From assembly GCF_022846255.1 (NCBI RefSeq), contig NZ_AP025682.1: 64,000 nt of DNA. The stretch is one strand, 5' to 3'. Positions 1 through 43,498 of the stretch are shown here, in pieces (position 1 is the first letter of the stretch; each line of letters begins with the position of its first letter). The notes under the pieces are model-generated. The model ran no database searches. It worked only from the letters and a program-made list of their open reading frames with translations, and had not been told where the DNA came from. The DNA is from Escherichia coli. GTDB taxonomy: Bacteria > Pseudomonadota > Gammaproteobacteria > Enterobacterales > Enterobacteriaceae. The position numbers were made by a program, and so were the translations under genes.

Positions 1-1
1 C

Positions 2-775
2 CGGACCAGCAACGAGCTGCGTAAACAGGGCGTTTTTATCTCCGGCAGTGGTGTCCGTTCTGCCTAGTTACGCCATAACCTTGAGAATTTCAAAAAACGT
101 CTGAAAGCACTGGAAGAAAAAGTAGCCCGTGATGGCATTGAGCTAACTGACAGCCAGATCGCAGCACTGGAGCGTAAAGCCAGTGATGACGAGGTCTGTG
201 GCGAAATCGAAACGGCTCATCCGGGATATCTGGGTTCGCAGGACACGTTCTATGTAGGCAACCTGAAAGGTGTCGGGCGTATTTATCAGCAGACGTTCGT
301 TGATACGTACTCGAAAGTGGCTCACTGTAAGCTTTACGTCATCAAAACACCGATTACCGCGGCTGACTTACCGAATGATCGTGTACTGCCGTTTTATGCG
401 TCTCAGGGCCTGCCGATGCTGAGAATACTGACCGACAGAGGCACAGAGTACTGTGGCAAAGTAGAGCAGCATGATTATCAGCTTTATCTGGCAATAAACG
501 ATATAGAACACACGAAAACAAAGGCGATGTCCCCGCAGACCAACGGCATCTGCGAGCGGTTCCATAAAACAATCCTGAACGAATTTTATCAGGTAACGTT
601 CCGTAAAAACTGTACGGCGATCTTGATACATTACAGTCGGATCTTGATGAATGACTGGCTCACTATAATAATGAGCGAACCCATCAGGGAAAAATGTGCA
701 ATGGGCGGACGCCAATGGAAACGTTACTTGATGGAAAGCGCATCTGGGCCGAGAAAAATTTAAGCCAGATGTAAT
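2..775 (+). pseudogene. Decayed DDE (rve integrase-core) transposase, IS481-like; 5' end lies outside the window
   Basis: Frame 2 translation gives an integrase-core-like sequence (…TDRGTEYCGKVEQHDYQLYLAINDIEHTKTKAMSPQTNGICERFHKTILNEFYQ…). It is broken by an in-frame TAG at 65-67, a frameshift near the A-run at ~605-612, and an in-frame TGA near 655; the C-terminus (…NNERTHQGKMCNGRTPMETLLDGKRIWAEKNLSQM*) continues in another frame to the TAA at 773-775. Confidence 0.6.
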
Positions 776-882
776 CTGACAGATACCTGTATAAATAACC
801 GGTAACTGTCAGATCAGGTCTGAGCTAATACAGCTTATTCATGCAAGGCCAGTGAACATAACTGACCTTGTTAATATATTTA

Positions 883-2673
883 TTAAGTAAATAAAAACGC
901 CTCAACCTCTTTTAAAGTCTTTTCTAAAAAACGCAAAGATTCTCTGCAATCATCATCGCTCATTTGAGCTATTTTTTTTGCTAACGGGATCTTTCGTTTT
1001 TTGGGTATAAGATACTCAATCTTAATTGAGTAGTCTTTGTCTTTTAAATTATCAGAGAGTTTCATTTCTGATTGAATTAACTCATTAACTTTTTCTGGTG
1101 TAAGCATTTCATTTAAATTAGCTCTTCTTTCAAGATTATTTTCTTCTAACTCTTCTTTCCATATTGCAATAGGATAATTGGACTCTAAAACCCCTGGTAT
1201 TTTATAACCATCTTTTTTTGCACTGAGAACATCTTGCGTTGGTTTTAATGTAAAGCATTTAACTGATTTACCAATATCTTGAATATCACCAAGTTCTTTT
1301 TTGACATTTATACCATCTTTATCTGCATCTACAATGCCAACACATTTATATTTGTTTTGATGATGTTTATGGATATGATAATAAGCTTTTAACATGTCAC
1401 AAACATAGTTTGTTCCTGCGCCAAAATCTTTTGTAATTACCTCAATGTCATTCATCCTTTCTGGTATGAAAACTTGTATCGCCCTTTCAATTATAATTTT
1501 ATCGCTGGCTCCCTCTACGTACATTACAGCTTTTTCATCACCAAGTTTACCAACGGATTCAATATTTTCTATACGAGATTTCACCTCATCAATATAGGGT
1601 GAAAGCAATTCCATAACCCCCATTCTGTCATCAAGCAGTGCATATTTATCATCACAAGAGGTTACATCAGTCAAGTCTTTCTCAATAAAAATGCAATTAA
1701 CAGATCTATCTTGTTTTGAGAGATTATAAAATGCAGGAGAATGTGTAGTTATAAATAATTGTGATACAGGATCTGGCACGAAAGTTTTAAACTGTATGGC
1801 AAGCTTGATTGATGACGTTAACTCAAGGTTATTTTCTGGCTCTTCATAGCCCCATATAAATGTATACGGTGGGTTGCCTCTTGCCTGTAGTGTTTTTGTT
1901 TTCTCAGCAATATATTTTAATATTAATGGAATGTGGCGAGCTTTGATTCCATCACCTCGTTCATTAAGAGATATTTTCATTTCATTTAGAAAGTCTAAAT
2001 TCCCAAATAAATTACTTAGATCTCTAGGAAGCGAAAGTTCAGAGTTAAAACCAAGAGATTCGTTAATCTCTTTTGTTAACTCATGAAGATTCTCAGCTAT
2101 ACTCTTCTCAAATGCTTTGCTTGAATCGCTAAAATTCTCATTGAACACAGCATTTACAACAAAATATATTTCACTCCTTAATTTTGCAATATACCCTTTA
2201 TCCTTAATTGCAGGAATATAAACATATTTTACATTATTAAGTAACTGTCTTATATTTGAACGAGCTGGAATTTCTTGCTTTTCTGTTCGTCGACCGCCTC
2301 TAGGGCCACTATATGATTTAATCCCAAGTATACTCTCATCATAAAATCCACCTGAGCGCCATGACTTCGTCCATTCAATTAAATTTCCATTTGTTGCATG
2401 ATAACTAGATGGAATATCAAGAAGTAATTTAATTTTTATCTCTCTAGCTTTTTTAGAATATTTTTTTGCCGCATAAATATTATAGTCAGTTGAAAAATCA
2501 AAAGATTCTCCTGGATTTGTTTGCGAATTAAAGAAGAGGTTTAAAGCTCTTAATATATTTGATTTACCAGCATCATTATTACCAACAATAATCTGTAGTC
2601 GCGCACTATCAATAACTATTTTCTGAATTGATCGAAAATTCGTGATTTCAATTCTTCGAATACTAACCGGCAT
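883..2673 (-). CDS. OLD-family ABC-ATPase/Toprim nuclease (class-1 OLD-like, GajA-like or fused PARIS AriAB-like), ~596 aa
   Basis: N-terminal Walker A (IVGNNDAGKSNILRALNLFF), Walker B/D-loop-like FIWGYEEPENNLE and H-loop-like QLFITTHSPAF; C-terminal Toprim-like motifs (MYVEGASDKIIIE, GIVDADKDG). Start placed at the ATG at 2673 (M37 of the track ORF 883..2781), which has a GAGG Shine-Dalgarno ~8 nt upstream. GC about 30%, well below the core genome. Confidence 0.75.
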   Translation of the reverse strand: MPVSIRRIEITNFRSIQKIVIDSARLQIIVGNNDAGKSNILRALNLFFNSQTNPGESFDFSTDYNIYAAKKYSKKAREIKIKLLLDIPSSYHATNGNLIEWTKSWRSGGFYDESILGIKSYSGPRGGRRTEKQEIPARSNIRQLLNNVKYVYIPAIKDKGYIAKLRSEIYFVVNAVFNENFSDSSKAFEKSIAENLHELTKEINESLGFNSELSLPRDLSNLFGNLDFLNEMKISLNERGDGIKARHIPLILKYIAEKTKTLQARGNPPYTFIWGYEEPENNLELTSSIKLAIQFKTFVPDPVSQLFITTHSPAFYNLSKQDRSVNCIFIEKDLTDVTSCDDKYALLDDRMGVMELLSPYIDEVKSRIENIESVGKLGDEKAVMYVEGASDKIIIERAIQVFIPERMNDIEVITKDFGAGTNYVCDMLKAYYHIHKHHQNKYKCVGIVDADKDGINVKKELGDIQDIGKSVKCFTLKPTQDVLSAKKDGYKIPGVLESNYPIAIWKEELEENNLERRANLNEMLTPEKVNELIQSEMKLSDNLKDKDYSIKIEYLIPKKRKIPLAKKIAQMSDDDCRESLRFLEKTLKEVEAFLFT

Positions 2674-2807
2674 AAAAACCTCATCGTAACGCCTGTTTAT
2701 ATTTATAGCTGATAAAATAACACAACCACAATGAAAGTGAATAGTGAATTGCCACAAGTTTAACAAACACCTCAAGATCATTTAAAATGACTTAAAGAGA
2801 GGCTCCC

Positions 2808-3125
2808 ATGAGCAGTAAGCGTTAACTCGCAGAGTTTAAAATTAAAGCAGTCAAACAGATTGTTGAACATGGTTATTCTGTTTCCCTGCGTTGCAACACA
2901 TCTGTGTAAGTTCACTCTTTAGTGTACAAGCCATGAGCGTCAGTCGTTCCTGAAATAACACGACCATCGCGGTAACTGCCACTATAATGCGGTTACAGAA
3001 AGCTTTTTCCAGTTACTGAAGTCTGAACGGATAAAGAAAAAATCTTCAGCCCCCTGATCTCATCGTGTTATTCACAACAATCCACTCCTGAAATGGCCGT
3101 GAATACAATTTATCAAGGCTAGTGG
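2808..3125 (+). mobile_element. IS3-family transposase orfA remnant with multiple stops
   Basis: Translation MSSKR*LAEFKIKAVKQIVEHGYSVSLRCNTSV* resembles the HTH N-terminus of IS3-family OrfA proteins but is interrupted by stops; no ORF of 60 aa or more survives. Confidence 0.35.
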
Positions 3126-3257
3126 TCACTTTTCCTATTATGATTAGTGAAAACATAAAGTGCGGAAACGAATGAAAATGCACTGTATTATTTAAAGACA
3201 TCATCCAACGCCCTTACCGTGGTATACACTCAGGCACCAGATGCTGTTTTACAGGGT

Positions 3258-3989
3258 TCACCTGCCATCCAGAAGACGCCCCGGCCCACGACTGCAACCA
3301 TAATTACGTTGCCCGGAACCGTCATGCTGCTTCGTCTCATACTTCACGAGATAACTGGCTCTGTTCTGGGCTTTCTGCATCGCTTCCACATCACCACGCT
3401 TGATCCAGAGAACAGCGGCTTCACCCGGCTTTTTGTCTGAAGCCTTCCTGGTTTCAGAACATCCACCCGACAAAGGCGTATCATCGGAAGAAGGGCGAGC
3501 ATCAGATGATGTCGGTTTACGGAAAGGCGTCCGCCTGGAAAAATGAACCAGTCCATTACCCTGCCAGGGCTCAAGATGCAGAGCGCTACACCATGCCAGT
3601 TGTATCAGCGTCGCCAGCGAAGAAGGAACGGTGAAATCCCCTGGCGAGCACCAGGTATCTTTGTTGAGCAGTAATATCACGTGATAATGTTTCCTGCCTT
3701 TTTCCTTGCCAAACTCCCGACACCAGAAATAACGCAGAGTGGTTGCACGCACACGCTTGTTGGCACGTCGTTTATGTCGCTGGTAAGCCTGAATTTTTGC
3801 TTTCAGGGATGCAAAAAAACGAGAAATCACCGCTGAATCTAAATCGGTATCCATGATGGTGGCAGGCATATACTCAGGGAAACGTAAATCCACCCGGATT
3901 AACGAGACGGCACGGTGTTGCGCCAGGGCACTGTTGAGAATACTTTCAAAACGGGATAACCAGTAAGCATTGTGTATTGGTTGATTCAT
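3258..3989 (-). CDS. YagK/YfjJ-family (inovirus Gp2-like) prophage protein
   Basis: 243-aa ORF whose N-terminal half (MNQPIHNAYWLSRFESILNSALAQHRAVSLIRVDLRFPEYMP…RYFWCREFGKEKGRKHYHVILLLNKDTW…) resembles YagK/YfjJ proteins of CP4-type cryptic prophages; GGAG Shine-Dalgarno ~9 nt upstream of the ATG at 3989. The Arg/Ser/Gly-rich C-terminal tail may be read-through. Confidence 0.6.
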   Translation of the reverse strand: MNQPIHNAYWLSRFESILNSALAQHRAVSLIRVDLRFPEYMPATIMDTDLDSAVISRFFASLKAKIQAYQRHKRRANKRVRATTLRYFWCREFGKEKGRKHYHVILLLNKDTWCSPGDFTVPSSLATLIQLAWCSALHLEPWQGNGLVHFSRRTPFRKPTSSDARPSSDDTPLSGGCSETRKASDKKPGEAAVLWIKRGDVEAMQKAQNRASYLVKYETKQHDGSGQRNYGCSRGPGRLLDGR

Positions 3990-5503
3990 GATGAGAGATC
4001 TCCGTTGATTTGGATTGACTTCACATCATTAATCACCGCGGTAAAACTTTACGGCATCCGGCATTGAGCAATGCTACAACTCTCTGATTAAGAGTGATTG
4101 AAACGGAACAAACCATCCCGGAACGAAAAGATAATTCTACACGCAGGGTAAAAACACTCAAGAACAGCGAATGGATTTAAAAACGACATGGACAACGAGA
4201 AAAGTCAGAAGGGAAAAGGATCCACAGAACATTCGAACAAAACACCAGAAACGCAACCAGAACGCTTCCTGGTAATGCAAATCAACAACAACCCCAAAAC
4301 CTACAGCTTAATCACACAACTCAATCACGGATGCGAATGACACGTTTAAAACCTGTTTACAGATAAACCCCGCCACAAGAACAAAAATCACCAACATCAG
4401 AATCGATTTTCTCATCCTGAAAAAGTTACGTTTCACTACGCACCATAAAAACGATTAACCATCGATAACGTAAACCTTATCTGAATCAAAAACACCAAAA
4501 CCGTTCATCACACTTTCGCAATGCAAGAAGAAACCTCATGACAAAAAGAATGACCTTACACGGAAAAGAAAACGTCAGGAATCGTTAATGCCTCAATCTG
4601 ATTGTTATCAAAACATCCAGAAAGTCGTTTAACAGAATCGTCGTAAGCACATCGAAAAAAACGTCAGATTACTTCAGGAAAGTTCGGGTTGATTTAGCGT
4701 AAAGATACTTTTCTCATGCTAACGTCGAAACTCGAAATCTCAGGAAAGGTTAAACGTAACATCAGTAAAATCGAATAGCAGATTGATTGCTGAAGCAGAA
4801 AGGTTTTACAGCAGCATTAAACTGATTTAGTTAACGTAAAGATTTACTAAACTGGATGTGTATAGCAATGCTTAACGAAAACACTTGTAGAAGTGTTTAT
4901 GAAAATACGTGTATAAGACTTACTGAAATGCTTAGTAAAAATACTTAGTAAAATACGTGTATATAGTATCATACCGACATTAGCAACATTCTCAGACACT
5001 CATGCAGACTGAATGTTGATTACCCGTTTTCACATCAGGCATGGTTCTTTACTGACCAAAAAACAAACTGGTTTACTCTTGAATTATTTTCTCTACCTCA
5101 GAAAACATGGTCTCAGGAATCTGCTATGGTTTCATAGTTTCTGTTGTTCCTTTCATAAAAGTTATAAGTCATTGTCATAATCATACGATAATCACTTTAT
5201 GTTAGTTTTTACTGTCACACGCTACTGACTTTTTCAGTCATTGCCAGAAAGGGGCTCTTTTTACTTCCATTTCACCACTCAACAAATGCAAAACTTGTCC
5301 AGTAAAGCGGACCACCTCTTGCTCACAAGCAACGAATCATCTCCAGGAACAGCCCTCAAACATTGCAGAAACAAAAACAACAAAACCCTCATTATCACTG
5401 ATGTTCGGAAAATTTCCCGGAACAAAAAAAACGAAATCAAAATGAGACTCATTATCATGGATGTAGTCAAAAAGACGTTATGGTGGCTTTCAGTTAAATG
5501 GTA
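3990..5503. other. ORF-free, strongly A-rich / T-poor tract (+ strand) with short direct and inverted repeats
   Basis: No credible ORF of 60 aa or more in any frame over ~1.5 kb; extreme A-over-T skew on the + strand; imperfect tandem units around 4860-4975 (repeated aatacgtgtata and gcttaNNNaaaa motifs) and an inverted repeat aacacttgtagaagtgtt. Confidence 0.4.
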
Positions 5504-6634
5504 CTATTTCTCATAAATCCACTTAACTTTTTTTACTGATTCATCCCAGATAACCACTTTATCAGTAAAAAATGAATTATATAGATTGACGAGTTTTTCT
5601 GTTTCAGTTATTCCCAATGTATTATGTATCAGTTGTAGATATGCTTTTATCCAGATTTCTTTACCCTCCCTCCACTTATCTATAAAACTTTCCAGCTTAC
5701 TTAATCGTTGATTTATAAAAAACGAATCAATATCATGAAAAAGCTCAACAAGAAAACAGCACGAGACAATCTCAACAAAAAACAAATTCTCCTTAAAAGT
5801 ATTATAAAACCTTATCAACACATAACGAAAAACACCTCCTGTTAATCTTTCCTGTTCATAAAACAACAAACCAAAAACAGGAGGAAATCTTTTAACCACA
5901 CCACTTTTAATCCAGTAAGGATGATGATTAGTCTTTACTGGCAGTGAATAAAAGAACAATTCGGTTTCTCTTTTCCCACCACAAACAGACAAAACTGTCT
6001 TATAAAGACTTTTTGAATCATTATGTCCTGATACCCCAGACGAATTAGCAGAGTATTTTCTTTTTACTTTTTGCCTTAATGGAGCTGGAAGAATAATAAA
6101 ACGGGATGGCAGATAACAATCGCTTTCAGAAGACCGGCATTCGCACACATGAAGATTTATATTTACATCCGGACAATTCAAAAACCACACAGAATAATTA
6201 TCGCACCGTTTGCAATATGAAACCCATGAATAAATTGCATAAAGTTCAGAAAGCGCATCTAACTCTGCTTTTGAATTAAATGTGATACCGTTTCTTCGAA
6301 TTCTCGTTTCCAGCGTTCTCCATGCCGGGGTTTTCAGTATCTCACGAACTTTTTTATTAAGTTCAGCCAGAGATGGTCCCTGCTCCTGTTTATGTTTCGT
6401 CCTGCTGTTAATGATTTCTCTTTCTTTTACTAATTTCCTCTTTCTTTTTGGTCCTTCTACCTTTCTTGGCAATGCTTCATTTAATCTGTGAACAGGATTT
6501 TGCTCTCTTCTTTTTTTGAGCTCACAAAACCTCTCATAATGTTTTCTGCACAGTCTTTTCTCCACTGCCATTTTTACTGAGAAAACCTGATTGTTACAAT
6601 TTTTTCTGACACATTTGTTTTTACGTCCGGTCAT
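5504..6634 (-). CDS. Hypothetical protein, 376 aa, basic Cys-rich N-terminus (possible zinc-binding/nucleic-acid-binding); function unknown
   Basis: Long ORF at about 35% GC. N-terminus MTGRKNKCVRKNCNN…CRKHYERFCELKKRR and a second Cys cluster YCKRCDNYSVWFLNCPDVNINLHVCECRSSESDC. No family recognised by eye. Confidence 0.6.
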   Translation of the reverse strand: MTGRKNKCVRKNCNNQVFSVKMAVEKRLCRKHYERFCELKKRREQNPVHRLNEALPRKVEGPKRKRKLVKEREIINSRTKHKQEQGPSLAELNKKVREILKTPAWRTLETRIRRNGITFNSKAELDALSELYAIYSWVSYCKRCDNYSVWFLNCPDVNINLHVCECRSSESDCYLPSRFIILPAPLRQKVKRKYSANSSGVSGHNDSKSLYKTVLSVCGGKRETELFFYSLPVKTNHHPYWIKSGVVKRFPPVFGLLFYEQERLTGGVFRYVLIRFYNTFKENLFFVEIVSCCFLVELFHDIDSFFINQRLSKLESFIDKWREGKEIWIKAYLQLIHNTLGITETEKLVNLYNSFFTDKVVIWDESVKKVKWIYEK

Positions 6635-6818
6635 CCTCTCATCTCCTGAAACAGCAGTATGTCATTAGTTCCCGTTCTGAAAAACTGACGCCATACTCCA
6701 TTACACTTTAACAATAATGTCCGTAATTCAGACATTCCATCATTTTTCACGCCCATATTACCTGAATGATAAACCGGATTAGTGTGATCCGGTTCAGTGA
6801 AATCAACAGGATACCGGT

Positions 6819-7703
6819 ATGTCATTCAGCCATTCTTCCCTCTCCGCACAAGTGAAATCATATCTGACGTTTCTTCCTGAAGAAATTCGTCAGAAAATTC
6901 TTGAACATCTCCACAGCGTTATTCATTACGAACCCGTGATTGGCATTATGGGTAAATCCGGCACCGGCAAAAGTAGCCTGTGTAATGCTATTTTTCAGTC
7001 CCATATCTGTGCCACGCATCCCCTGAACGGCTGCACCCGCCAGGCTCATCGTCTTACCCTGCAGATCGGTGAACGCAGAATGACGCTGGTCGATCTGCCC
7101 GGCATTGGAGAGACGCCGCAACATGATCAGGAATACCGGGCGCTTTACCGTCAGTTACTGCCGGAAGTGGATTTGATTATCTGGATCCTGCGGGCAGATG
7201 AACGCGCATATGCCGCCGACATTACCATGCATCAGTTTTTACTGAATGAAGGCGCAGATCCCTCGCGTTTTCTGTTTGTTCTCAGCCATGCCGATCGCGT
7301 GTTTCCTGCTGAAGAATGGAATGCCACAGAAAAATGCCCGTCCCGTCAGCAGGCGCTCTCACTGGCGACGGTGACAGCCCGGGTGGCAACCCTGTTCCCT
7401 TCATCATTTCCGGTACTCTCCGTTGCTGCACCTGTCGGCTGGAACCTTCCGGCGTTTGTGTCGCTGATGATCCACGCACTGCCACCACAGGCAACCAGCG
7501 CGGTGTATTCACATATCCGGGGAGAAAACCGCTCTGAACAGGCCCAGAAACACGCACAACAGACTTTTGGTGAAACCATCGGGAAAAGTTTTGACGTCGC
7601 CGTTGCCCGTTTCAGTTTTCCGGCCTGGATGTTACAGCTTCTGCGTAAAGCCCGGGACCGCATTATCCACCTGCTGATCACACTGTGGGAGCGTCTGTTC
7701 TGA
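6819..7703 (+). CDS. YfjP/YkfA/YeeP-family GTPase (CP4-type prophage)
   Basis: P-loop GIMGKSGTGKSSLCNAIF and G3-like DLPGIGE motifs; 294 aa. Confidence 0.8.
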   Translation: MSFSHSSLSAQVKSYLTFLPEEIRQKILEHLHSVIHYEPVIGIMGKSGTGKSSLCNAIFQSHICATHPLNGCTRQAHRLTLQIGERRMTLVDLPGIGETPQHDQEYRALYRQLLPEVDLIIWILRADERAYAADITMHQFLLNEGADPSRFLFVLSHADRVFPAEEWNATEKCPSRQQALSLATVTARVATLFPSSFPVLSVAAPVGWNLPAFVSLMIHALPPQATSAVYSHIRGENRSEQAQKHAQQTFGETIGKSFDVAVARFSFPAWMLQLLRKARDRIIHLLITLWERLF

Positions 7704-7905
7704 CACACTCACGCCGACAGGATGTGTCGCTGGATTAACGAGCATTCTTCTTTTTATGAAATCATGCTTAAAAATCAGATAATTAAAAGAATATTTTTTC
7801 TGCTGCATTTTATTCCTGATTATCCGGATGCGACACATCCTTTCAACATCATGATGCATAATAACATCATGAAATAAAAGATGTTTTCTTACGGAGTGCA
7901 CATCT

Positions 7906-8586
7906 ATGTCTGATAATCGTTCCCGGCATGATCGCCTGGCGGTTCGCTTATCACTCATTATCAGCCGACTGATGGCCGGAGAATCTCTGTCACTAAAAAC
8001 ACTGTCAGATGAATTTGGCGTTACAGAACGTACTTTACAGCGCGATTTTCATCAGCGTCTGGTTCACCTGGATTTAGAGTACAGAAATGGCAGGTACAGC
8101 CTCAGACGACAGAGCAGCCCAGGTGCGATCCCTGAAATGCTTTCTTTTATACAGAATACCGGGATCGCACGGATACTTCCGCTCCGGAACGGACGACTGA
8201 TAACCTGTCTTACCGACAACCAGGAGCCCTCTCCCTGCCTTATCTGGCTACCGGCGCCGGATATCACTGCAACGTTCCCCGAGTGTTTCTCGCAACTCAT
8301 CCTGGCAATAAGACAGTGTATCCACATCTCTCTGATGACTGAGCGATGGTATCCGTCACTGGAGCCCTGCCGGCTCATTTATTACAGCGGTAGCTGGTAT
8401 CTGATCGCGTTACAGAAGGGAAAACTGCAGGTCTTTCCTCTGGCAGATATCAAATCAGTCAGCCTGACATCAGAACGGTTTGAACGGAGAGGCCACATCC
8501 ACAGTCTGGTCGCTGAAGAGCGTTTTATCTCCGCCCTGCCACATTTCTCTTTCATCCATAAACTTATCAACACCTTTAACCTGTGA
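7906..8586 (+). CDS. YfjR-like transcriptional regulator (HTH + WYL-like domain)
   Basis: 226-aa ORF with an N-terminal HTH-like segment (LKTLSDEFGVTERTLQRDFHQ); sits in the conserved position after the GTPase gene. Confidence 0.65.
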   Translation: MSDNRSRHDRLAVRLSLIISRLMAGESLSLKTLSDEFGVTERTLQRDFHQRLVHLDLEYRNGRYSLRRQSSPGAIPEMLSFIQNTGIARILPLRNGRLITCLTDNQEPSPCLIWLPAPDITATFPECFSQLILAIRQCIHISLMTERWYPSLEPCRLIYYSGSWYLIALQKGKLQVFPLADIKSVSLTSERFERRGHIHSLVAEERFISALPHFSFIHKLINTFNL

Positions 8587-8733
8587 TCGCCGGCCTGCCA
8601 AAGCCGTCCCGACAGGTATGGAGACAATATGTTGAACAGAAAACTAAATATACGGCTACGTCATTCCCTGAACAGTCACTGCATACCTTCCGTCATTATC
8701 AATAACACCGTACGTTCATTTCAGAGGTCAGTC

Positions 8734-9411
8734 ATGAATACCAGAGCTCTTTTTCCCCTGCTGTTCACTGTGGCATCATTCTCCGCCTCCGCCGGCAACT
8801 GGGCTGTCAAAAACGGCTGGTGTCAGACCATGACGGAAGATGGTCAGGCGCTGGTAATGCTGAAAAATGGCACGATTGGTATTACCGGCCTGATGCAGGG
8901 ATGCCCGAATGGCGTACAGACGCTCCTGGGCAGCCGTATCAGTATTAACGGTAACCTGATCCCCACATCACAAATGTGTAATCAGCAGACGGGATTCAGG
9001 GCTGTTGAGGTGGAAATCGGACAGGCGCCGGAAATGGTCAAAAAAGCCGTTCACTCCATAGCAGAGCGTGATGTGTCCGTTTTACAGGCATTTGGTGTAC
9101 GAATGGAATTCACCCGCGGTGATATGCTGAAGGTCTGTCCGAAATTTGTCACATCACTTGCCGGTTTTTCCCCGAAACAGACGACCACTATTAATAAAGA
9201 TTCCGTCCTGCAGGCTGCCCGGCAGGCATACGCCCGGGAATATGACGAGGAAACAACAGAAACCGCTGATTTTGGCTCTTACGAAGTAAAAGGCAATAAG
9301 GTTGAGTTTGAAGTATTCAATCCTGAAGACCGTGCGTACGACAAAGTGACCGTCACGGTTGGTGCTGACGGTAATGCCACCGGCGCCAGCGTTGAATTTA
9401 TCGGAAAATAG
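8734..9411 (+). CDS. Secreted/periplasmic hypothetical protein with signal peptide
   Basis: Start placed at M36 of the track [24 protein letters not shown], a signal-peptide-like N-terminus. Confidence 0.6.
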
Positions 9412-9416
9412 CCGGT

Positions 9417-9650
9417 ATGTCGGACTGCCACCCTGTTTTATTGCCCGAAGGCCCTTTCTCACGCGAACAGGCGGTTGCCGTCACAACAGCTTACCGCAAT
9501 GTGCTTATTGAAGATGACCAGGGAACGCATTTCCGGCTGGTTATCCGCAATGCCGAAGGGCAGCTACGCTGGCGGTGCTGGAATTTTGAACCTGATGCCG
9601 GAAAACAGCTAAATTCGTATCTCGCCAGTGAGGGAATTCTCAGGCAATAA
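9417..9650 (+). CDS. Small conserved prophage protein (DUF905-like)
   Basis: 77-aa ORF tightly packed between neighbours on the same strand. Confidence 0.5.
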
Positions 9651-9739
9651 ACGTCTTCATTTCATCCATCAGGCCGCGTCTTCTCCGGGAGACGCGGCCT
9701 TTTCGTTTATACCGCTAATTCATTCATAAGGAGCAAAGT

Positions 9740-10558
9740 ATGCAATTAGCCAGTCGTTTTGGTCATGTAAATCAGATCCGTCGGGAGCGCCCACTGACAC
9801 GCGAAGAACTGATGTACCACGTCCCGAGTATTTTTGGAGAAGACCGGCACACCTCCCGCAGTGAACGGTATGCGTACATTCCCACCATCACCGTCCTGGA
9901 AAATCTGCAGCGGGAAGGCTTTCAGCCGTTCTTCGCCTGCCAGACCCGTGTGCGCGACCAGAGCCGCCGGGAATATACCAAACATATGCTGCGTCTGCGG
10001 CGGGCCGGACAGATAACCGGTCAGCATGTGCCTGAAATTATTCTGCTCAACTCCCATGACGGTTCATCCAGCTACCAGATGTTACCCGGATATTTTCGTG
10101 CCATCTGCACCAATGGCTTGGTCTGCGGTCAGTCGCTGGGAGAAGTCCGGGTGCCCCACCGGGGAAACGTGGTGGACAGGGTGATTGAAGGTGCTTACGA
10201 AGTGGTGGGCGTGTTTGACCGGATTGAGGAAAAGCGTGATGCCATGCAGTCGCTGGTCCTGCCGCCACCGGCACGCCAGGCGCTGGCACAGGCGGCGCTG
10301 ACTTACCGTTATGGTGATGAACATCAGCCCGTCACCACTACCGACATTCTGACGCCACGACGCCGGGAGGATTACGGTAAGGACCTGTGGAGTGCTTATC
10401 AGACCATCCAGGAAAATATGCTGAAAGGCGGGATTTCCGGTCGCAGTGCCAGAGGAAAACGTATCCATACCCGGGCCATTCGCAGCATCGATACCGACAT
10501 TAAGCTCAACCGGGCGTTGTGGGTGATGGCAGAAACGCTGCTGGAGAGCATGCGCTGA
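9740..10558 (+). CDS. DUF932 family protein (YfjQ/YafZ-like)
   Basis: 272-aa ORF; MQLASRFGHVNQIRRERPLTREELMYHVPSIFGEDRHTSRSERYAYIPTITVLENLQREGFQPFFACQT… is typical of YafZ/YfjQ. Confidence 0.8.
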   Translation: MQLASRFGHVNQIRRERPLTREELMYHVPSIFGEDRHTSRSERYAYIPTITVLENLQREGFQPFFACQTRVRDQSRREYTKHMLRLRRAGQITGQHVPEIILLNSHDGSSSYQMLPGYFRAICTNGLVCGQSLGEVRVPHRGNVVDRVIEGAYEVVGVFDRIEEKRDAMQSLVLPPPARQALAQAALTYRYGDEHQPVTTTDILTPRRREDYGKDLWSAYQTIQENMLKGGISGRSARGKRIHTRAIRSIDTDIKLNRALWVMAETLLESMR

Positions 10559-10649
10559 TGCTGTTTCCCTGAAAGTGCAGCCCTGACTCACGTCTGTACC
10601 AGTCCCCAGGCATTCTTCCATTCATTTACTTTTTATAAGGAATCATCTC

Positions 10650-11135
10650 ATGACAACCTTTTCGCATAGCTCCACCACACCTTCTGTTTCCGTAACTACT
10701 GCATCAGGGAATAACCAGTCTCAACTGGTTGCCACTCCCGTCCCTGATGAACAGCGCATCAGCTTCTGGCCGCAGCACTTTGGCCTCATTCCACAGTGGG
10801 TGACCCTGGAGCCCCGTGTCTTCGGCTGGATGGACCGTCTGTGTGAAGACTACTGCGGGGGTATCTGGAATCTGTACACCCTGAACAACGGTGGCGCATT
10901 TATAGCACCTGAACCGGATGAAGATGATGGAGAAACCTGGATACTGTTCAATGCCATGAACGGTAACCGCGCTGAAATGAGCCCGGAAGCTGCCGGCATT
11001 GCCGCCTGTCTGATGGCGTACAGCCATCATGCCTGTCGTACGGAGTGTTATGCCATGACGGTCCACTATTACCGGCTGCGGGATTACGCCCTGCAACATC
11101 CGGAATGCAGCGCCATTATGCGCATCATTGACTGA
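10650..11135 (+). CDS. Antirestriction protein (ArdB/KlcA-like; YfjX/YeeS-neighbour family)
   Basis: 161-aa ORF with the conserved …WPQHFGLIPQWVTLEPRVFGWMDRLCEDYCGGIWNLYTLNNGGAFIAPE… pattern. Confidence 0.8.
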   Translation: MTTFSHSSTTPSVSVTTASGNNQSQLVATPVPDEQRISFWPQHFGLIPQWVTLEPRVFGWMDRLCEDYCGGIWNLYTLNNGGAFIAPEPDEDDGETWILFNAMNGNRAEMSPEAAGIAACLMAYSHHACRTECYAMTVHYYRLRDYALQHPECSAIMRIID

Positions 11136-11149
11136 AAGGGGCCGGAACA

Positions 11150-11626
11150 ATGCAACAGATTTCCTTTCTGCCCGGAGAAATGACGCCCGGTGAGCGCAGC
11201 CTCATTCAGCGGGCCCTGAAAACCCTGGACCGCCATCTTCATGAACCCGGCGTGGCCTTCACCTCCACGCATGCGGCACGGGAATGGCTGATTCTGAACA
11301 TGGCGGGACTGGAGCGTGAAGAATTCCGGGTGCTGTATCTGAACAACCAGAATCAGCTGATTGCCGGTGAAACCCTCTTCACCGGCACCATCAACCGCAC
11401 GGAAGTCCATCCCCGGGAAGTGATTAAACGCGCCCTGTATCACAATGCCGCTGCCGTGGTGCTGGCACACAATCACCCGTCCGGTGAAGTCACACCCAGT
11501 AAGGCAGACCGGCTTATCACCGAACGTCTGGTACAGGCACTGGCCCTGGTGGATATCCGGGTGCCGGACCATCTGATAGTCGGTGGCAACCAGGTTTTCT
11601 CCTTTGCGGAACACGGTCTGCTTTAA
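11150..11626 (+). CDS. RadC-like JAB-domain protein (YeeS/YfjY/YkfG family)
   Basis: JAMM motif HNHPSGEVTPSKAD in a 158-aa ORF. Confidence 0.85.
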   Translation: MQQISFLPGEMTPGERSLIQRALKTLDRHLHEPGVAFTSTHAAREWLILNMAGLEREEFRVLYLNNQNQLIAGETLFTGTINRTEVHPREVIKRALYHNAAAVVLAHNHPSGEVTPSKADRLITERLVQALALVDIRVPDHLIVGGNQVFSFAEHGLL

Positions 11627-11688
11627 CCCGTCACAACTACATCACACTTGTTTTCACTTTTATCTTCTGTCTTCAGAGGTATCCCATC

Positions 11689-11910
11689 ATGAAAATTATC
11701 ACCCGTGGTGAAGCCATGCGTATTCACCAACAGCATCCTGCATCCCGTCTTTTTCCGTTCTGTACCGGTAAGTACCGCTGGCACGGCAGCGCTGAAGCGT
11801 ATACCGGTCGTGAAGTGCAGGATATTCCCGGCGTTCTTGCCGTGTTTGCTGAACGCCGTAAGGACAGTTTTGGCCCGTATGTCCGGCTGATGAGCGTCAC
11901 TCTGAACTGA
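11689..11910 (+). CDS. DUF987 protein (YeeT-like)
   Basis: 73-aa ORF MKIITRGEAMRIHQQHPASRLFPFCTGKYRWHGSAEAYTGREVQDIPGVLAVFAERRKDSFGPYVRLMSVTLN. Confidence 0.75.
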   Translation: MKIITRGEAMRIHQQHPASRLFPFCTGKYRWHGSAEAYTGREVQDIPGVLAVFAERRKDSFGPYVRLMSVTLN

Positions 11911-11989
11911 GTCAGGAAGGGCATTCAGAAGAGCAGAATTATCGCCACCACCGGACCATTCTTAACCAATTTTCTGTGAGGATTTTATT

Positions 11990-12358
11990 GTGTCAGACAC
12001 ATTCTCCGGGACAACGCATCCCGATGACAATCACGACCGCCCCTGGTGGGGGCTGCCCTGTACCGTGACACCTTGTTTTGGCGCCCGTCTGGTGCAGGAG
12101 GGTAACCGGTTGCATTACCTTGCCGACCGCGCCGATATCAGAGGCCGGTTCAGCGACGCGGATGCGTACCATCTGGACCAGGCCTTTCCGCTGCTGATGA
12201 AACAACTGGAGCTCATGCTCACCAGCGGTGAACTGAATCCCCGCCATCAGCATACCGTCACGCTGTATGCAAAAGGGCTGACCTGCGAAGCCGACACCCT
12301 CGGCAGTTGTGGCTACGTTTATATGGCTGTTTATCCGACGCCCGAAACGAAAAAGTAA
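11990..12358 (+). CDS. Type IV antitoxin of the CbeA/YeeU family
   Basis: 122-aa ORF immediately upstream of a CbtA-like gene; …WGLPCTVTPCFGARLVQEGNRLHYLADRA… matches the YeeU/CbeA pattern. Confidence 0.85.
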   Translation: MSDTFSGTTHPDDNHDRPWWGLPCTVTPCFGARLVQEGNRLHYLADRADIRGRFSDADAYHLDQAFPLLMKQLELMLTSGELNPRHQHTVTLYAKGLTCEADTLGSCGYVYMAVYPTPETKK

Positions 12359-12447
12359 ACCACCGGAATAATCGTCTGTTCCGGCCTGGTGCTTTCACCA
12401 CGCCACTTTTCCATTTTTCATCTCTGCATATCAGGAAAATCTTCAGT

Positions 12448-12825
12448 ATGAAAACATTACCTGTATTACCCGGGCAGGCGGCCAGTTCACGCCCGTCTCC
12501 GGTTGAAATCTGGCAGACACTGCTCACCCGACTGCTGGACCAGCATTACGGCCTTACGCTGAATGACACACCGTTCGCTGATGAACGTGTGATTGAGCAG
12601 CATATTGAGACAGGCATTTCACTGTGCGATGCGGTGAACTTTCTCGTTGAAAAATACACACTGGTACGTACCGACCAGCCAGGATTCAGCGCCTGTACCC
12701 GTTCTCAGTTAATAAACAGTATTGATATCCTCCGGGCCCGCCGGGCAACCGGCCTGATGGCCCGCGACAATTACAGAACGGTAAATAACATTACCCTGGG
12801 TAAACATCCGGGGGCGAAACAATGA
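12448..12825 (+). CDS. Type IV toxin of the CbtA/YeeV family
   Basis: Start at M48 of the track ORF; MKTLPVLPGQAASSRPSPVEIWQTLLTRLLDQHYGLTLNDTPFADERVIEQHIETGISLCDAVNFLVEKYTLVRTDQPGF…. Confidence 0.85.
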   Translation: MKTLPVLPGQAASSRPSPVEIWQTLLTRLLDQHYGLTLNDTPFADERVIEQHIETGISLCDAVNFLVEKYTLVRTDQPGFSACTRSQLINSIDILRARRATGLMARDNYRTVNNITLGKHPGAKQ

Positions 12826-13310
12826 AACTGGCCCTGACGCTGGAAGCCGACAGCATTAACGTGCAGGCACTGAACATGGGGCGCATTGTCGTTGACGTCG
12901 ATGGTGTTACTCTCGCTTAACTGATTAACGTGGTCTGCGATAACGGTTACTCCCTTCGTGTTGTTGATGAATCTGACCGGACATCAGCAGAGCGCACGCC
13001 ACCATCTGCGGCCCTTACCGGCATACGCTGCAGTACCGCGCATATCACGGCAAAGGACAACGCCTGGCTGTACTCGCTGTCACATCAGACGAATGGCACC
13101 GGCGAATCAGAATGGATTCATTTTACAGGTAGCGGATATCTGTTACGTACCGGTGCGTGGTCGTACCCGGTTCTGCGGCTTAAACGCCTGGGGCTGTCCA
13201 GAACGTTCCGCCGTCTGGTTGTCACACTCATCCGGCGTTATGGCGTCAGTCTCATTCATCTGGATGCCAGTGCCGGATGTCTGCCGGGTTTACCCACTTT
13301 CGACTGGTAA
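12822..13310 (+). pseudogene. YeeW-like prophage gene interrupted by an in-frame TAA
   Basis: ATG at 12822 overlaps the cbtA-like stop (ATGA). Frame 0 reads MKLALTLEADSINVQALNMGRIVVDVDGVTLA, then TAA at 12918-12920, then continues in the same frame (LINVVCDNGYSLRVVDESDR… to the stop at 13308-13310). Confidence 0.5.
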
Positions 13311-13326
13311 TCCGGAAATTCACAAC

Positions 13327-13524
13327 ATGAAATCATTAACCACGGAAACCGCACTGGATATTCTGATTGCGTGGCTGCAGGACAATATCGACTGCGAATC
13401 GGGAATTATCTTTGACAACGATGAGGATAGAACGGATTCGGCAGCACTGTTGCCCTGTATCGAACAGGCCAGGGAGGATATCCGTATCCTGCGCCAGTTG
13501 CAGCTTCTGCAACAGAACCGGTGA
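13327..13524 (+). CDS. Small hypothetical prophage protein (65 aa)
   Basis: ATG-initiated ORF MKSLTTETALDILIAWLQDNIDCESGIIFDNDEDRTDSAALLPCIEQAREDIRILRQLQLLQQNR; corresponds to the C-terminal part of the track ORF 12958..13524. Confidence 0.45.
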   Translation: MKSLTTETALDILIAWLQDNIDCESGIIFDNDEDRTDSAALLPCIEQAREDIRILRQLQLLQQNR

Positions 13525-13608
13525 GTCTTACTCACCAGACTTCATTCCACTGACGCCAGCCTGAACAGGGCTGGCGTTTTCATTTATCTGCAAAAAGGAA
13601 TATCGATT

Positions 13609-14451
13609 ATGTCTGAAATCACAGCCCCCCGTCCGGAAGTGGTCAACGGGCATACGGACGTTATCTGCTCAACCAGTATCCGCCACATTCTGGCTGTACG
13701 AAAGAGTACGCTGCTGCAAATCGACACACTTACCCGGCAACTGGCTGAAATCTCAGCAATGACAGAAAGCATTGGCGGTAAAACCGCACTGGACTGGGCG
13801 ATGAAACAGGATTTTCGCTGCGGCTGCTGGCTCATGGAGAAAACTGAAACGGCAATGAAAGCCATCACCCGAAACCTTGACCGTGAAATCTGGCGTGACC
13901 TGATGCAACGCTCCGGGATGCTGTCATTAATGGATGCGCAGACCCGTGATACATGGTACCGGTCACTGGAGTACAATAATTTTCCGGAAATCAGTGAAGC
14001 GAACATTCTGAGCACATTTGAACAACTGCACCAGAATAAGGATGAGGTGTTTGAGCGAGGGGTGATCAACGTCTTCAGGGGACTGAGCTGGGATTACAAA
14101 ACCAACTCACCCTGTAAATTTGGCAGTAAAATTATCGTCAACAACCTGGTGAGGTGGGACCGGTGGGGGTTTCATCTTATCACCGGGCAACAGACTGACC
14201 GACTCGTCGACCTGGAAAGAATGCTACATCTGTTCAGCGGCAAACCGATCCCCGACAACCGGGAAAACATCACTATTCGTCTGGATGGTCACATCCAGTC
14301 CGTTCAGGGTAAAGAGCGCTATGAAGACGAGATGTTCATCATTAAATACTTTAAGAAGGGATCTGCACACATCACTTTCAAAAGGCTGGAACTGATTGAC
14401 AGAATTAACGATATAATAGCCAGGTACTTTCCTTCTGTGCTCTCAGCCTGA
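13609..14451 (+). CDS. DUF4942-family protein (terminal gene of CP4-like elements)
   Basis: 280-aa ORF at the island end, just inside the tRNA-derived repeat. Confidence 0.7.
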   Translation: MSEITAPRPEVVNGHTDVICSTSIRHILAVRKSTLLQIDTLTRQLAEISAMTESIGGKTALDWAMKQDFRCGCWLMEKTETAMKAITRNLDREIWRDLMQRSGMLSLMDAQTRDTWYRSLEYNNFPEISEANILSTFEQLHQNKDEVFERGVINVFRGLSWDYKTNSPCKFGSKIIVNNLVRWDRWGFHLITGQQTDRLVDLERMLHLFSGKPIPDNRENITIRLDGHIQSVQGKERYEDEMFIIKYFKKGSAHITFKRLELIDRINDIIARYFPSVLSA

Positions 14452-14561
14452 TCCCGAGTGTGATTCCCTTTCGATATCAAAAGGGACTGCGGGTATAATT
14501 GAGGGTACATTTTTAATCAAACCAAACAAATTGTATTAATATCAATATGATAAAAGAAATT

Positions 14562-14583
14562 TTCGATTCCGAGTCCGGCACCA
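14562..14583 (+). repeat. tRNA-Phe (pheU) 3'-end copy; island attachment-site direct repeat (right boundary)
   Basis: ttcgattccgagtccggcacca matches the 3' end of E. coli tRNA-Phe (TTCGATTCCGAGTCCGGGCACCA, recalled) with one G missing; the upstream sequence does not continue the tRNA. Confidence 0.7.
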
Positions 14584-14592
14584 AATTCATAT

Positions 14593-14622
14593 AAACGGAC
14601 CTCCACGGAGGTCCGTTTTTCG
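14593..14622 (+). terminator. Rho-independent terminator-like hairpin downstream of the tRNA-derived repeat
   Basis: ggacctcc-ac-ggaggtcc stem followed by gttttt. Confidence 0.6.
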
Positions 14623-15199
14623 TTTCAGGACGCCACGATTTAAGCGTCCTGCCGCCAAATCAATTCTACCGAACTCAACCAGATTCTCCCCACATCACCA
14701 GCAATTTACGGGCATATTCCAATTCGGGAAAATTTGTTTCTGAGCTATAGCGCTGACTGACGTGAAATGTCGTGCGGCCCCGTGATGCTGTTGAACGTCA
14801 AATGACGTCATCAGGAGCGTAACGCACCCATAAAGCACAACATCGGGCAGAACGCCAACTGATGAGATTTTCTGAATAAGAACAAAGAGAAATGTATCAG
14901 TCCGTTTGCTCATGCAAAGACTAACAATCCATTAAAATAGTAAGCGCTCCGGACAATTTTTCATGGATTATTTTCTGAACATTTTTCTTTGGCAAAGATG
15001 ATGAATTTTGATGGTAAGGAAAATTACTTCTGGTTCTCAGTAAAATCCTTTCGTAATACTATGTAATCAAGAAGTTTATGGCGGGTAAAAATAACGTCCT
15101 ACATTCACCAATAATATGTAAATAAACCCATCTATAGATGGAAAAAATAGGTTATGGCAATTATCATTGCATCATTCCCTTTTCGAATGAGTTTCTATT

Positions 15200-16738
15200 A
15201 TGCAACAACCTGTAGTTCGCGTTGGCGAATGGCTTGTTACTCCGTCCATAAACCAAATTAGCCGCAATGGGCGTCAACTTACCCTTGAGCCGAGATTAAT
15301 CGATCTTCTGGTTTTCTTTGCTCAACACAGTGGCGAAGTACTTAGCAGGGATGAACTTATCGATAATGTCTGGAAGAGAAGTATTGTCACCAATCACGTT
15401 GTGACGCAGAGTATCTCAGAACTACGTAAGTCATTAAAAGATAATGATGAAGATAGTCCTGTCTATATCGCTACTGTACCAAAGCGCGGCTATAAATTAA
15501 TGGTGCCGGTTATCTGGTACAGCGAAGAAGAGGGAGAGGAAATAATGCTATCTTCGCCTCCCCCTATACCAGAGGCGGTTCCTGCCACAGATTCTCCCTC
15601 CCACAGTCTTAACATTCAAAACACCACAACGCCACCTGAACAATCCCCAGTTAAAAGCAAACGATTCACTACCTTTTGGGTATGGTTTTTTTTCCTGTTG
15701 TCGTTAGGTATCTGTGTCGCACTGGTAGCGTTTTCAAGTCTTGAAACACGTCTTCCTATGAGTAAATCGCGCATTTTGCTCAATCCACGCGATATTGACA
15801 TTAATATGGTTAATAAGAGTTGTAACAGCTGGAGTTCTCCGTATCAGCTCTCTTACGCGATAGGCGTGGGTGATTTGGTGGCGACATCACTTAACACCTT
15901 CTCCACCTTTATGGTGCATGACAAAATCAACTACAACATTGATGAACCGAGCAGTTCCGGTAAAACATTATCTATTGCGTTTGTTAATCAGCGCCAATAC
16001 CGTGCTCAACAATGCTTTATGTCGGTAAAATTGGTAGACAATGCAGATGGTTCAACCATGCTGGATAAACGTTATGTCATCACTAACGGTAATCAGCTGG
16101 CGATTCAAAATGATTTGCTCCAGAGTTTATCAAAAGCGTTAAACCAACCGTGGCCACAACGAATGCAGGAGATGCTCCAGCAAATTTTGCCGCATCGTGG
16201 TGCGTTATTAACTAATTTTTATCAGGCACATGATTATTTACTGCATGGTGATGATAAATCATTGGATCGTGCCAGTGAATTATTAGGTGAGATTGTTCAA
16301 TCATCCCCAGAATTTACCTACGCGAGAGCAGAAAAAGCATTAGTTGATATCGTGCGCCATTCTCAACATCCTTTAGACGAAAAACAATTAGCAGCACTGA
16401 ACACAGAAATAGATAACATTGTTACACTACCGGAATTGAACAACTTGTCCATTATATATCAAATAAAAGCGGTCAGTGCCCTGGTAAAAGGTAAAACAGA
16501 TGAGTCTTATCAGGCGATAAATACTGGCATTGATCTTGAAATGTCCTGGCTAAATTATGTGTTGCTTGGCAAGGTTTATGAAATGAAGGGGATGAACCGG
16601 GAAGCAGCTGATGCATATCTCACCGCCTTTAATTTACGCCCAGGGGCAAACACCCTTTACTGGATTGAAAATGGTATATTCCAGACTTCTGTTCCTTATG
16701 TTGTACCTTATCTCGACAAATTTCTCGCTTCAGAATAA
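15200..16738 (+). CDS. cadC: CadC, membrane-integrated ToxR-like activator of the cadBA operon
   Basis: 512 aa; N-terminal winged-helix segment (MQQPVVRVGEWLVTPSINQISRNGRQLTLEPRLIDLLVFFAQHSGEVLSRDELIDNVW), transmembrane segment and periplasmic sensor; upstream of cadBA. Confidence 0.95.
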   Translation: MQQPVVRVGEWLVTPSINQISRNGRQLTLEPRLIDLLVFFAQHSGEVLSRDELIDNVWKRSIVTNHVVTQSISELRKSLKDNDEDSPVYIATVPKRGYKLMVPVIWYSEEEGEEIMLSSPPPIPEAVPATDSPSHSLNIQNTTTPPEQSPVKSKRFTTFWVWFFFLLSLGICVALVAFSSLETRLPMSKSRILLNPRDIDINMVNKSCNSWSSPYQLSYAIGVGDLVATSLNTFSTFMVHDKINYNIDEPSSSGKTLSIAFVNQRQYRAQQCFMSVKLVDNADGSTMLDKRYVITNGNQLAIQNDLLQSLSKALNQPWPQRMQEMLQQILPHRGALLTNFYQAHDYLLHGDDKSLDRASELLGEIVQSSPEFTYARAEKALVDIVRHSQHPLDEKQLAALNTEIDNIVTLPELNNLSIIYQIKAVSALVKGKTDESYQAINTGIDLEMSWLNYVLLGKVYEMKGMNREAADAYLTAFNLRPGANTLYWIENGIFQTSVPYVVPYLDKFLASE

Positions 16739-42230: not shown

Positions 42231-43322
42231 ATGCGTTTTCTGCGCCGACCAATATCGCTGCGCCAACGGCTGATATTGACCATCGGGGCCATTTTGTTGG
42301 TGTTTGAGCTGATCAGCGTCTTCTGGCTATGGCATGAAAGTACCGAGCAGATTCAGCTGTTTGAGCAGGCGCTACGCGACAATCGTAACAACGATCGCCA
42401 CATCATGCGTGAGATCCGCGAGGCGGTCGCCAGCCTGATTGTCCCCGGCGTCTTTATGGTCAGCCTGACGCTATTTATCTGCTATCAGGCGGTACGCCGC
42501 ATCACCCGCCCGCTGGCGGAGCTGCAAAAAGAGCTGGAAGCGCGCACCGCCGACAACTTAACGCCCATTGCCATTCACAGCGCCACCCTCGAAATCGAAG
42601 CGGTGGTTTCGGCGTTAAACGATCTGGTCAGTCGCCTGACCAGCACGCTGGATAACGAAAGGTTGTTTACCGCTGACGTCGCGCACGAACTGCGAACGCC
42701 ACTGGCGGGGGTGCGTTTGCATCTGGAACTGCTGGCGAAAACGCATCACATTGATGTAGCACCGTTAGTGGCACGACTTGATCAGATGATGGAGAGCGTC
42801 TCCCAGCTGCTGCAACTGGCGCGTGCCGGACAGTCATTTTCTTCCGGTAATTATCAACATGTAAAACTGCTGGAAGATGTCATTCTCCCCTCGTATGACG
42901 AACTTAGTACCATGCTCGACCAGCGCCAGCAAACCCTGCTATTGCCAGAGAGCGCCGCCGACATCACCGTTCAGGGTGATGCAACCCTGCTGCGGATGTT
43001 ATTGCGAAACCTGGTAGAAAACGCCCATCGTTATAGCCCACAAGGCAGCAACATTATGATTAAGCTGCAAGAAGATGGCGGAGCGGTCATGGCCGTTGAA
43101 GATGAAGGGCCGGGTATTGATGAGAGTAAATGCGGGGAGTTGAGTAAAGCGTTTGTACGAATGGACAGCCGTTATGGCGGAATTGGTCTGGGGTTAAGTA
43201 TTGTCAGCCGCATTACACAGTTGCATCACGGGCAGTTTTTCCTGCAAAACCGGCAAGAGACTTCCGGCACGCGGGCCTGGATACGGCTGAAAAAAGATCA
43301 GTACGTGGCAAACCAGATATAA
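42231..43322 (+). CDS. basS: Sensor histidine kinase BasS/PmrB
   Basis: 363 aa from the ATG (MRFLRRPISL…); an in-frame TTG at 42222 is an alternative start; H-box VAHELRTPL. Confidence 0.9.
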   Translation: MRFLRRPISLRQRLILTIGAILLVFELISVFWLWHESTEQIQLFEQALRDNRNNDRHIMREIREAVASLIVPGVFMVSLTLFICYQAVRRITRPLAELQKELEARTADNLTPIAIHSATLEIEAVVSALNDLVSRLTSTLDNERLFTADVAHELRTPLAGVRLHLELLAKTHHIDVAPLVARLDQMMESVSQLLQLARAGQSFSSGNYQHVKLLEDVILPSYDELSTMLDQRQQTLLLPESAADITVQGDATLLRMLLRNLVENAHRYSPQGSNIMIKLQEDGGAVMAVEDEGPGIDESKCGELSKAFVRMDSRYGGIGLGLSIVSRITQLHHGQFFLQNRQETSGTRAWIRLKKDQYVANQI

Positions 43323-43387: not shown

Positions 43388-43498
43388 TGCACTCTCCTCC
43401 GTTAACCTGGAGGAGAGTATGCGCGTCAGAGATTAAGTGAACCTTAAGAGTTCAATTGACCTGATAAGACAGCGTCACATCAGGCCATCCGTTTCAGC

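Follow-up and report, generated by a model that had tools for sequence, protein, structure and literature searches.

The she PAI (SHI-1) of Shigella flexneri is located at pheV, has an imperfect 22-bp copy of the pheV 3′-end as its boundary repeat, and is excised by its P4-type Int with an AlpA-like factor. The attR sequence TTCGATTCCGAGTCCGG-CACCA, termed a 23-bp imperfect repeat, was tabulated for the GI-pheV of APEC O1, S88, ED1a, H10407, 12009, CB9615, 55989, and others (PMC11537424, PLoS Genet 2024). Insertions at pheU as well as at pheV end with a 22-bp tRNA direct repeat that shows a 1-nt shift with respect to K-12 (PMC6174562, Gut Pathog 2018), and the pheU islands PAI-CFT073-pheU, PAI-S88-pheU, PAI-ED1a-pheU, and PAI-CE10-pheU have been catalogued (PMC7545054).

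The whole stretch of DNA analyzed here, 64 kb in length (the window), includes the 22-mer TTCGATTCCGAGTCCGGCACCA, a string identical to the GI-pheV attR listed in Table 1 of PMC11537424. We consider it very probable that this 22-mer is the attR site, i.e., the distal direct repeat, of an island with a P4-type tyrosine integrase inserted at the 3′-end of pheU. It resembles the attR sites of GI-pheV and GI-pheU with P4-type integrases in its sequence, in being a distal partial tRNA-Phe 3′-end, and in having a CP4-type ('yee') module beside it. The present case is at pheU whereas pheV is the more thoroughly studied site; otherwise, there is no material difference from the GI-pheV attR. The integration site is also shared with the ExPEC pheU PAIs, and the host backbone is B2-like (99.4% identical to the phylogroup B2 strains ABU 83972 and ATCC 11775). 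The cargo differs from theirs, as the visible part includes an OLD-type ATPase-nuclease and none of their listed virulence genes. The she PAI is alike in the kind of repeat and in the logic of the integrase family. The repeat is already known as an ordinary feature, and it had been correctly recognized in the first-pass annotation. Since the mechanism is textbook knowledge and the exact repeat is published, no open question is advanced by its identification.

The repeat and the right-hand boundary of the island

The features of the locus are listed below. The comparators named are CS18F and H22, with islands at pheU, EC15, with an island at pheV, and SCU-176, with an island at selC.

1-14561 (no strand): visible right-hand part of the island; absent from the K-12 locus, found at pheV (EC15) and selC (SCU-176)
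6819-14451 (+): CP4-type backbone module; ORFs, collinear PGAP names in CS18F, EC15, H22, and SCU-176, and a PADLOC WYL match
14465-14486 (no strand): palindrome TCCCTTTCGAT/ATCAAAAGGGA, 11+11 nt, just after the DUF4942 stop; conserved at the end of the EC15 pheV island
14489-14506 (+): doublet GCGGGT-N6-GAGGGT, candidate arm-type site 73 nt upstream of the repeat; recurs elsewhere
14562-14583 (+): attR core, assigned with high confidence from the exact match, the alignment with K-12 pheU, the CS18F, H22, and EC15 junctions, and the published GI-pheV attR
14593-14623 (+): predicted native pheU intrinsic terminator (hairpin and T tract); terminator scan, fold, and K-12 identity
14781-14943 (+): yjdQ, frameshifted C-terminal remnant of an older tyrosine integrase; annotation in K-12, CS18F, and H22
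15200-16738 (+): cadC, nearest intact backbone gene on the right side of the junction; 512-aa ORF and annotation of collinear loci

A pattern search located a single exact match to the 22-mer in the window, in the context ...aaagaaatt TTCGATTCCGAGTCCGGCACCA aattcatataAAACGGACCTCCACGGAGGTCCGTTTttcgttt.... Alignment with K-12 pheU showed that it corresponds to nucleotides 54-76 of tRNA-Phe minus one G of the GGG, so that 22 of the 23 nt are retained, in the orientation that pheU has relative to cadC. Counting back from the CCA end, the repeat spans the T-loop (7 nt), the 3′ strands of both the T-stem and the acceptor stem, and the discriminator base, and it includes the CCA itself. The first-pass annotation had placed a 22-nt copy of the tRNA-Phe 3′-end with one G missing, together with the hairpin that follows it, at 14562-14622, and both the description and the coordinates were accurate. 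The perfect tRNA-Phe 23-mer was absent from the window, also when up to 3 mismatches were tolerated, and no second copy of the repeat was present in the 64 kb. ARAGORN identified no tRNA genes in the whole window, and the Rfam search of the same DNA gave no tRNA match, only three unrelated matches of the sRNA or REP type. A functional tRNA gene or a tRNA pseudogene at the repeat was rejected, as the element includes only nucleotides 54-76 and neither ARAGORN nor Rfam found a cloverleaf. The three Rfam matches above the gathering score were found in the backbone part, and they are the STnc630 sRNA at 43291-43456 (-) and two REP-derived naRNA4 elements at 49123-49200 (+) and 51677-51756 (-).

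In K-12 MG1655 the order of the locus is cadA-cadB-cadC-yjdQ (pseudogene)-pheU-dicD-dsbD, with all genes on one strand. When positions 14440-15210 of the window were compared with K-12, similarity started exactly at T54, with none to the left of the 22-mer, and continued rightward through the remainder of pheU minus the G, an identical terminator, yjdQ, and the start of cadC. Identity to the right of the junction was 98.3% over 4.6 kb, and positions 1-14561 are absent from the K-12 pheU-cadC locus. The right-hand boundary of the island is located between positions 14561 and 14562, with single-base precision, and from 14584 onward the window is shared E. coli backbone, the yjdQ integrase fossil included. 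The comparison with a pheU-empty genome that had been recommended in the first-pass annotation defined the insertion, with the breakpoint at T54. Its proposal that the repeat marks the exact boundary between the CP4-like module and the core agrees with this breakpoint, and the DNA to the left, which it had assigned to an island, is island DNA for positions 1-14561.

The distribution of the locus was determined in 5,426 complete RefSeq E. coli genomes. An empty site, with dicD, pheU, yjdQ, and cadC contiguous, was found in 3,700 of them, and the dicD-pheU segment was matched in 5,425. Among the genomes listed without an integrase of the CS18F type, the last base of the dicD-pheU segment to be matched is A76 of pheU or a position 6 nt further on. 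A query spanning the junction (window 13600-15600) was covered to at least 80% in 877 of the genomes, and the best match reached 98.2% over the junction. None of the complete genomes exceeded about 97% identity over the full length of the island part, the best values being 95.8-96.9%.

The terminator scan identified a hairpin, AAACGGACCTCC/GGAGGTCCGTTT, at 14593-14618, followed by a T run. The stem has 11-12 bp, with a dG of -20.5 kcal/mol and a z of -3.1, and the T tract after it reads TTTTTCGTTT. This hairpin is identical, base for base, to the terminator found after the intact pheU in K-12. The segment 14593-14623 is a predicted Rho-independent terminator that the insertion has displaced from pheU, and the terminator hairpin noted after the repeat in the first-pass annotation was supported by the scan, the fold, and the K-12 identity. 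The next element, yjdQ, is annotated as a pseudogene in K-12; in the CS18F and H22 annotations it is a partial tyrosine recombinase. K-12 has it between the pheU terminator and cadC, as do all the annotated E. coli pheU-cadC loci that were examined. A tblastn search with the integrase of the CS18F pheU island against the window and the yjdQ region gave no significant match; its identity as an integrase remnant therefore comes from annotation only. As a fossil of an older integrase, yjdQ indicates that the pheU site was used before.

Related islands at pheU, pheV, and selC

CS18F shows the layout of a complete island at this site. It has dicD, an intact pheU, and a 394-aa tyrosine integrase that starts 176 nt downstream of pheU. 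The island is about 43-44 kb long, with a cargo of sugar-utilisation genes, IS elements, and ireA, and then a CP4-type module ending with DUF4942. At its right end are the same G-less 22-mer, the terminator, yjdQ′, and cadC. The second copy of the repeat within an intact tRNA gene and the adjacent integrase were thus both seen in this comparator. The layout of CS18F, the breakpoint at T54, and the published attR sequences (PMC11537424, PMC6174562) all bear out the proposal of the first-pass annotation that the 22-mer is the att direct repeat of a tRNA-integrated element. In H22, which is among the closest backbone relatives, the same attR ends a pheU island of more than 45 kb.

Islands of the same backbone are found at other tRNA genes. 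EC15 carries it at pheV, next to yghD, with 99.8% identity to positions 1-2914 of the window, and the same G-less 22-mer is found at the end of its island, but the terminator-like hairpin after it is a different one. In SCU-176 the backbone is located at selC, next to yicL-nlpA, it is 96.9% identical over window positions 1-14402, and its terminal repeat is that of selC, TTCGACTCCTGTGATC. The point at which similarity to the window is lost depends on the locus: it precedes the repeat at selC and immediately follows it at pheV, and at pheU the similarity continues, which is the behavior of an att site. The selC islands (SCU-176 and those of the ST131 type) share with the present one the OLD-type nuclease, a terminal repeat that starts at the T-loop, and a GGGGGT doublet upstream. 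They differ in that the repeat is that of the selC 3′-end, and the match to the window ends some 140-160 nt short of the Phe repeat.

The integration model can be described as follows. Recombination would have taken place between the attP site of the island and the 3′-end of pheU, the tRNA-Phe gene. A functional pheU would be kept next to dicD at the far left end, as attL, with the integrase beside it, and the attL junction at the intact pheU is expected to carry TTCGATTCCGAGTCCGGGCACCA. The non-functional partial tRNA 3′-end left at the near end still has the original pheU terminator behind it, and then the yjdQ fossil and cadC.

The island arm of attR contains the doublet GCGGGT-N6-GAGGGT, which has only 3 matches in the whole window, counting both strands. 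Islands at pheU and pheV in E. coli, as well as loci in Budvicia and Limnobaculum, have this motif at 73-75 nt upstream of the repeat, with different flanks. A related sequence, GGGGGC-N6-GGGGGC, is present 125 nt downstream of pheU in the attL of CS18F. A similar GGGGGT doublet was described at both ends of a selC island (PMC6174562), and one is also visible in SCU-176. On the basis of its position and recurrence, we infer that the doublet may be an arm-type site for the integrase or for an accessory factor.

The missing G and the position of strand exchange

The overlap between the cleavage positions of tyrosine recombinases is usually seven bases long. The G-less variant of the repeat was found at two loci, pheU and pheV, which have different right flanks. 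The attR variants reported at pheV differ from one another: the intP4.1 islands mostly have a T-substituted 19-bp variant, TTTCATTCCGATTCCGGGCACCA, and the G-less form and AAAGTTCTCGAGTCCGGGCACCA are tabulated as well; what all of the variants have in common with the tRNA is limited to the terminal GGCACCA (PMC11537424). Taking together the presence of the G-less form at both pheU and pheV, the restriction of the shared sequence to GGCACCA, and the usual overlap of seven bases, a crossover within GGCACCA is the most economical reading. The G-less left part of the repeat would then be island-borne, i.e., derived from attP, and not a decayed chromosomal copy, and an island-borne origin would in turn place strand exchange in these last 7 nt. 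We favor, with moderate confidence, strand exchange in the terminal GGCACCA and an imperfect left part of attR that is the island's own core-type site. A point against a crossover at the 3′-end is that the repeat starts exactly at the first base of the T-loop.

The exact G-less 22-mer is widespread. In a scan of one genome per species, which covered the G-less form only, it was found at 22 loci, 21 of them outside tRNA genes. The genera included Yersinia, Budvicia, Citrobacter, Pantoea, Erwinia, Xenorhabdus, Sodalis, Rouxiella, Edwardsiella, Pectobacterium, Brenneria, and Limnobaculum. Two loci of Xenorhabdus hominickii (L031 2752-2773 and L032 5784-5805) have identical flanks and a tRNA-Phe fragment, G-less and beginning at the anticodon stem. 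The sequence after the fragment, CTTCAACTTCCAG... in both, is similar to the integrase-proximal arm of the E. coli attL, CTTTCACTTCCAG. This arrangement suggests tandem or serial integration of islands.

A different position of the crossover has to be considered, in which strand exchange at attR took place in the T-loop and the G-less copy is the displaced 3′-end of pheU, which lost its G after integration. Excision would then leave a defective pheU. We regard this as the less likely of the two positions, although several observations are compatible with it. The start of the repeat at T54 is what is seen in the T-loop class of tRNA sites; T-loop-starting sites are among the tRNA sublocation classes summarized in bioRxiv 10.1101/2020.11.02.365908, and the attB sites of Klebsiella phe-tDNA islands start in the T-loop (same source). 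In addition, Pantoea sp. IMH (L023 1473-1547) has a full-length tRNA-Phe gene that lacks the G and is followed by its own terminator, and it could be what excision after a T-loop crossover would leave. The deletion in this gene is the same single G, in the 3′ strand of the acceptor stem; a scar of excision, a tRNA copy that is defective, and a homopolymer sequencing error are all conceivable explanations. The species scan, which was limited to the G-less form, also leaves room for a T-loop crossover. Against a T-loop crossover, the same 1-nt deletion would have to occur independently at pheU, at pheV, and in many genera. Moreover, the attR of the intP4.1 type differs within the T-loop, with TTTCATT in place of TTCGATT, so that there would be mismatches in the overlap region, and close relatives among the islands do not agree in the bases immediately 5′ of T54 (AAATT versus CACTC). 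A Pectobacterium fragment with a compensated anticodon-stem variant also points to one, non-local source. In this fragment, from Pectobacterium polonicum (L037 2492-2513 and upstream), GAGGA...TCCTC is found instead of GGGGA...TCCCC, which suggests that it derives as a whole from a foreign functional tRNA-Phe and not from local decay. The crossover in GGCACCA remains the reading that we prefer.

The left end and the contents of the island

The intact pheU and the integrase of the present genome are strongly expected to lie beyond the left edge of the window, next to dicD, by analogy with CS18F. A search with the CS18F-type integrase gave no match in the 64 kb. A Logan contig that includes the nuclease gene is 100% identical to positions 1-9880 of the window and has 2,819 bp more on the left. 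These hold the rest of an IS481 remnant, a gene for a 188-aa Gp2-like protein, and part of a 190-aa gene. Contigs from the runs DRR322657, DRR684531, and ERR2357297 show 100% identity to the window on its left side. A further leftward walk with the 188-aa protein reached only long contigs of other strains. We infer the attL site in this genome, as the window has neither a tRNA gene nor a CS18F-type integrase and the leftward extension amounts to 2.8 kb only. Because the repeat is imperfect, the island may no longer excise.

A truncated pheU that lost its 5′ two-thirds by deletion or by IS rearrangement, without site-specific integration, would also leave a partial tRNA gene, and a rearrangement mediated by an IS that separated this end from pheU is a possible objection to the attR reading. 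An IS481-family pseudogene is located at about 1-780 of the window, the comparator islands are rich in IS elements, and attL, like the integrase and any excisionase, lies outside the visible DNA. However, the T54 breakpoint is identical in independent pheU and pheV islands and in other genera, the breakpoint of the selC island in this family falls on the equivalent base of the T-loop, the comparators keep an intact pheU at the opposite end, and no IS end abuts the fragment, all of which makes simple truncation very improbable. A chance likeness of 22 nt to tRNA-Phe without biological meaning, the possibility raised in the first-pass annotation, can be dismissed, since the recurrence by chance of short 10-mers such as TCCGGCACCA within coding genes is all that speaks for it, while 100 dinucleotide-preserving shuffles gave no match to the 22-mer with 3 mismatches tolerated, the 600 nt that come after it show homology to what lies downstream of pheU in K-12, and the identical string is found at island ends in many genomes.

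The visible part has the atypical content of an island, with the CP4-type module, the IS481 remnant, genes of the YagK/YfjJ type, and stretches of 32-39% GC. These last are the 1-kb bins in 1001-3000 and 4001-7000; the backbone module, by comparison, has 51-55%. To the left of the module, the order is the IS481 remnant, a gene for a 596-aa nuclease, a YagK/YfjJ ('inovirus Gp2') gene of 243 aa, an ORF-poor stretch, and a gene for a 376-aa hypothetical protein. In order, the module (6819-14451) comprises a YfjP-like GTPase, a WYL/HTH regulator, DUF905, DUF932, an antirestriction protein, and RadC/JAB, and then DUF987, a YeeU/CbtA toxin-antitoxin pair, DUF5983, DUF957, and DUF4942. The DUF4942 gene (13609-14451) is the last gene of the island and ends 110 nt upstream of the repeat. 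For most of the backbone genes, the NCBIfam search gave no matches and the PADLOC search at most one weak match. The ORF-poor stretch was delimited at 3990-5503, 1.5 kb without an internal ORF of at least 70 aa, with 37% GC and a strong A-over-T skew of +0.27 on the plus strand. Several comparator islands likewise have about 1.5 kb without a called gene between these two genes. Rfam gave only sub-threshold noise in the region 3900-5600.

The 596-aa protein, encoded at 886-2673 (-) in DNA of 32-34% GC, is an OLD-type ATPase of the AAA_15/AAA_23 kind, named 'ATP-dependent nuclease' by PGAP. It gave only partial, N-terminal matches, both to the PADLOC models for AriA, GajA, and Old and to the NCBIfam retron-Eco8 and PtuA effector models, none of them near the curated cut-offs of NCBIfam. 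Judging from these matches, it is probably the product of a stand-alone OLD-like defense gene outside the named systems. The exact protein was found only in three short Logan contigs. Its gene occupies a slot, at about 800-3260, between the genes for the 243-aa YagK/YfjJ protein and the 188-aa Gp2-like protein, and the cargo of this slot varies among genomes: the OLD-type nuclease is present here, and a DUF3987 protein, a TIR-domain protein, or an IreA receptor is present elsewhere. The slot looks like a variable cargo or defense hotspot within the island. As a tentative wider proposal, the absence of the G could be an attP trait, and not decay, in a family of Phe-tRNA islands that occurs in many genera of Enterobacterales and crosses over within GGCACCA; an alternative resolution, now and then, could leave defective G-less tRNA-Phe genes like that of Pantoea sp. 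IMH. Separately, the left part of the island beyond the window could, together with the OLD slot, carry uncharacterized anti-phage cargo.

The main value of the repeat is one of bookkeeping, as it separates accessory DNA (1-14561) from the shared backbone (14584 onward). It also indicates dicD/pheU as the place where the other end of the island is to be found in the full genome. Of interest to specialists are the recurrence of the G-less repeat at pheU, at pheV, and in many genera, and the conserved doublet motif 73-75 nt upstream of it.
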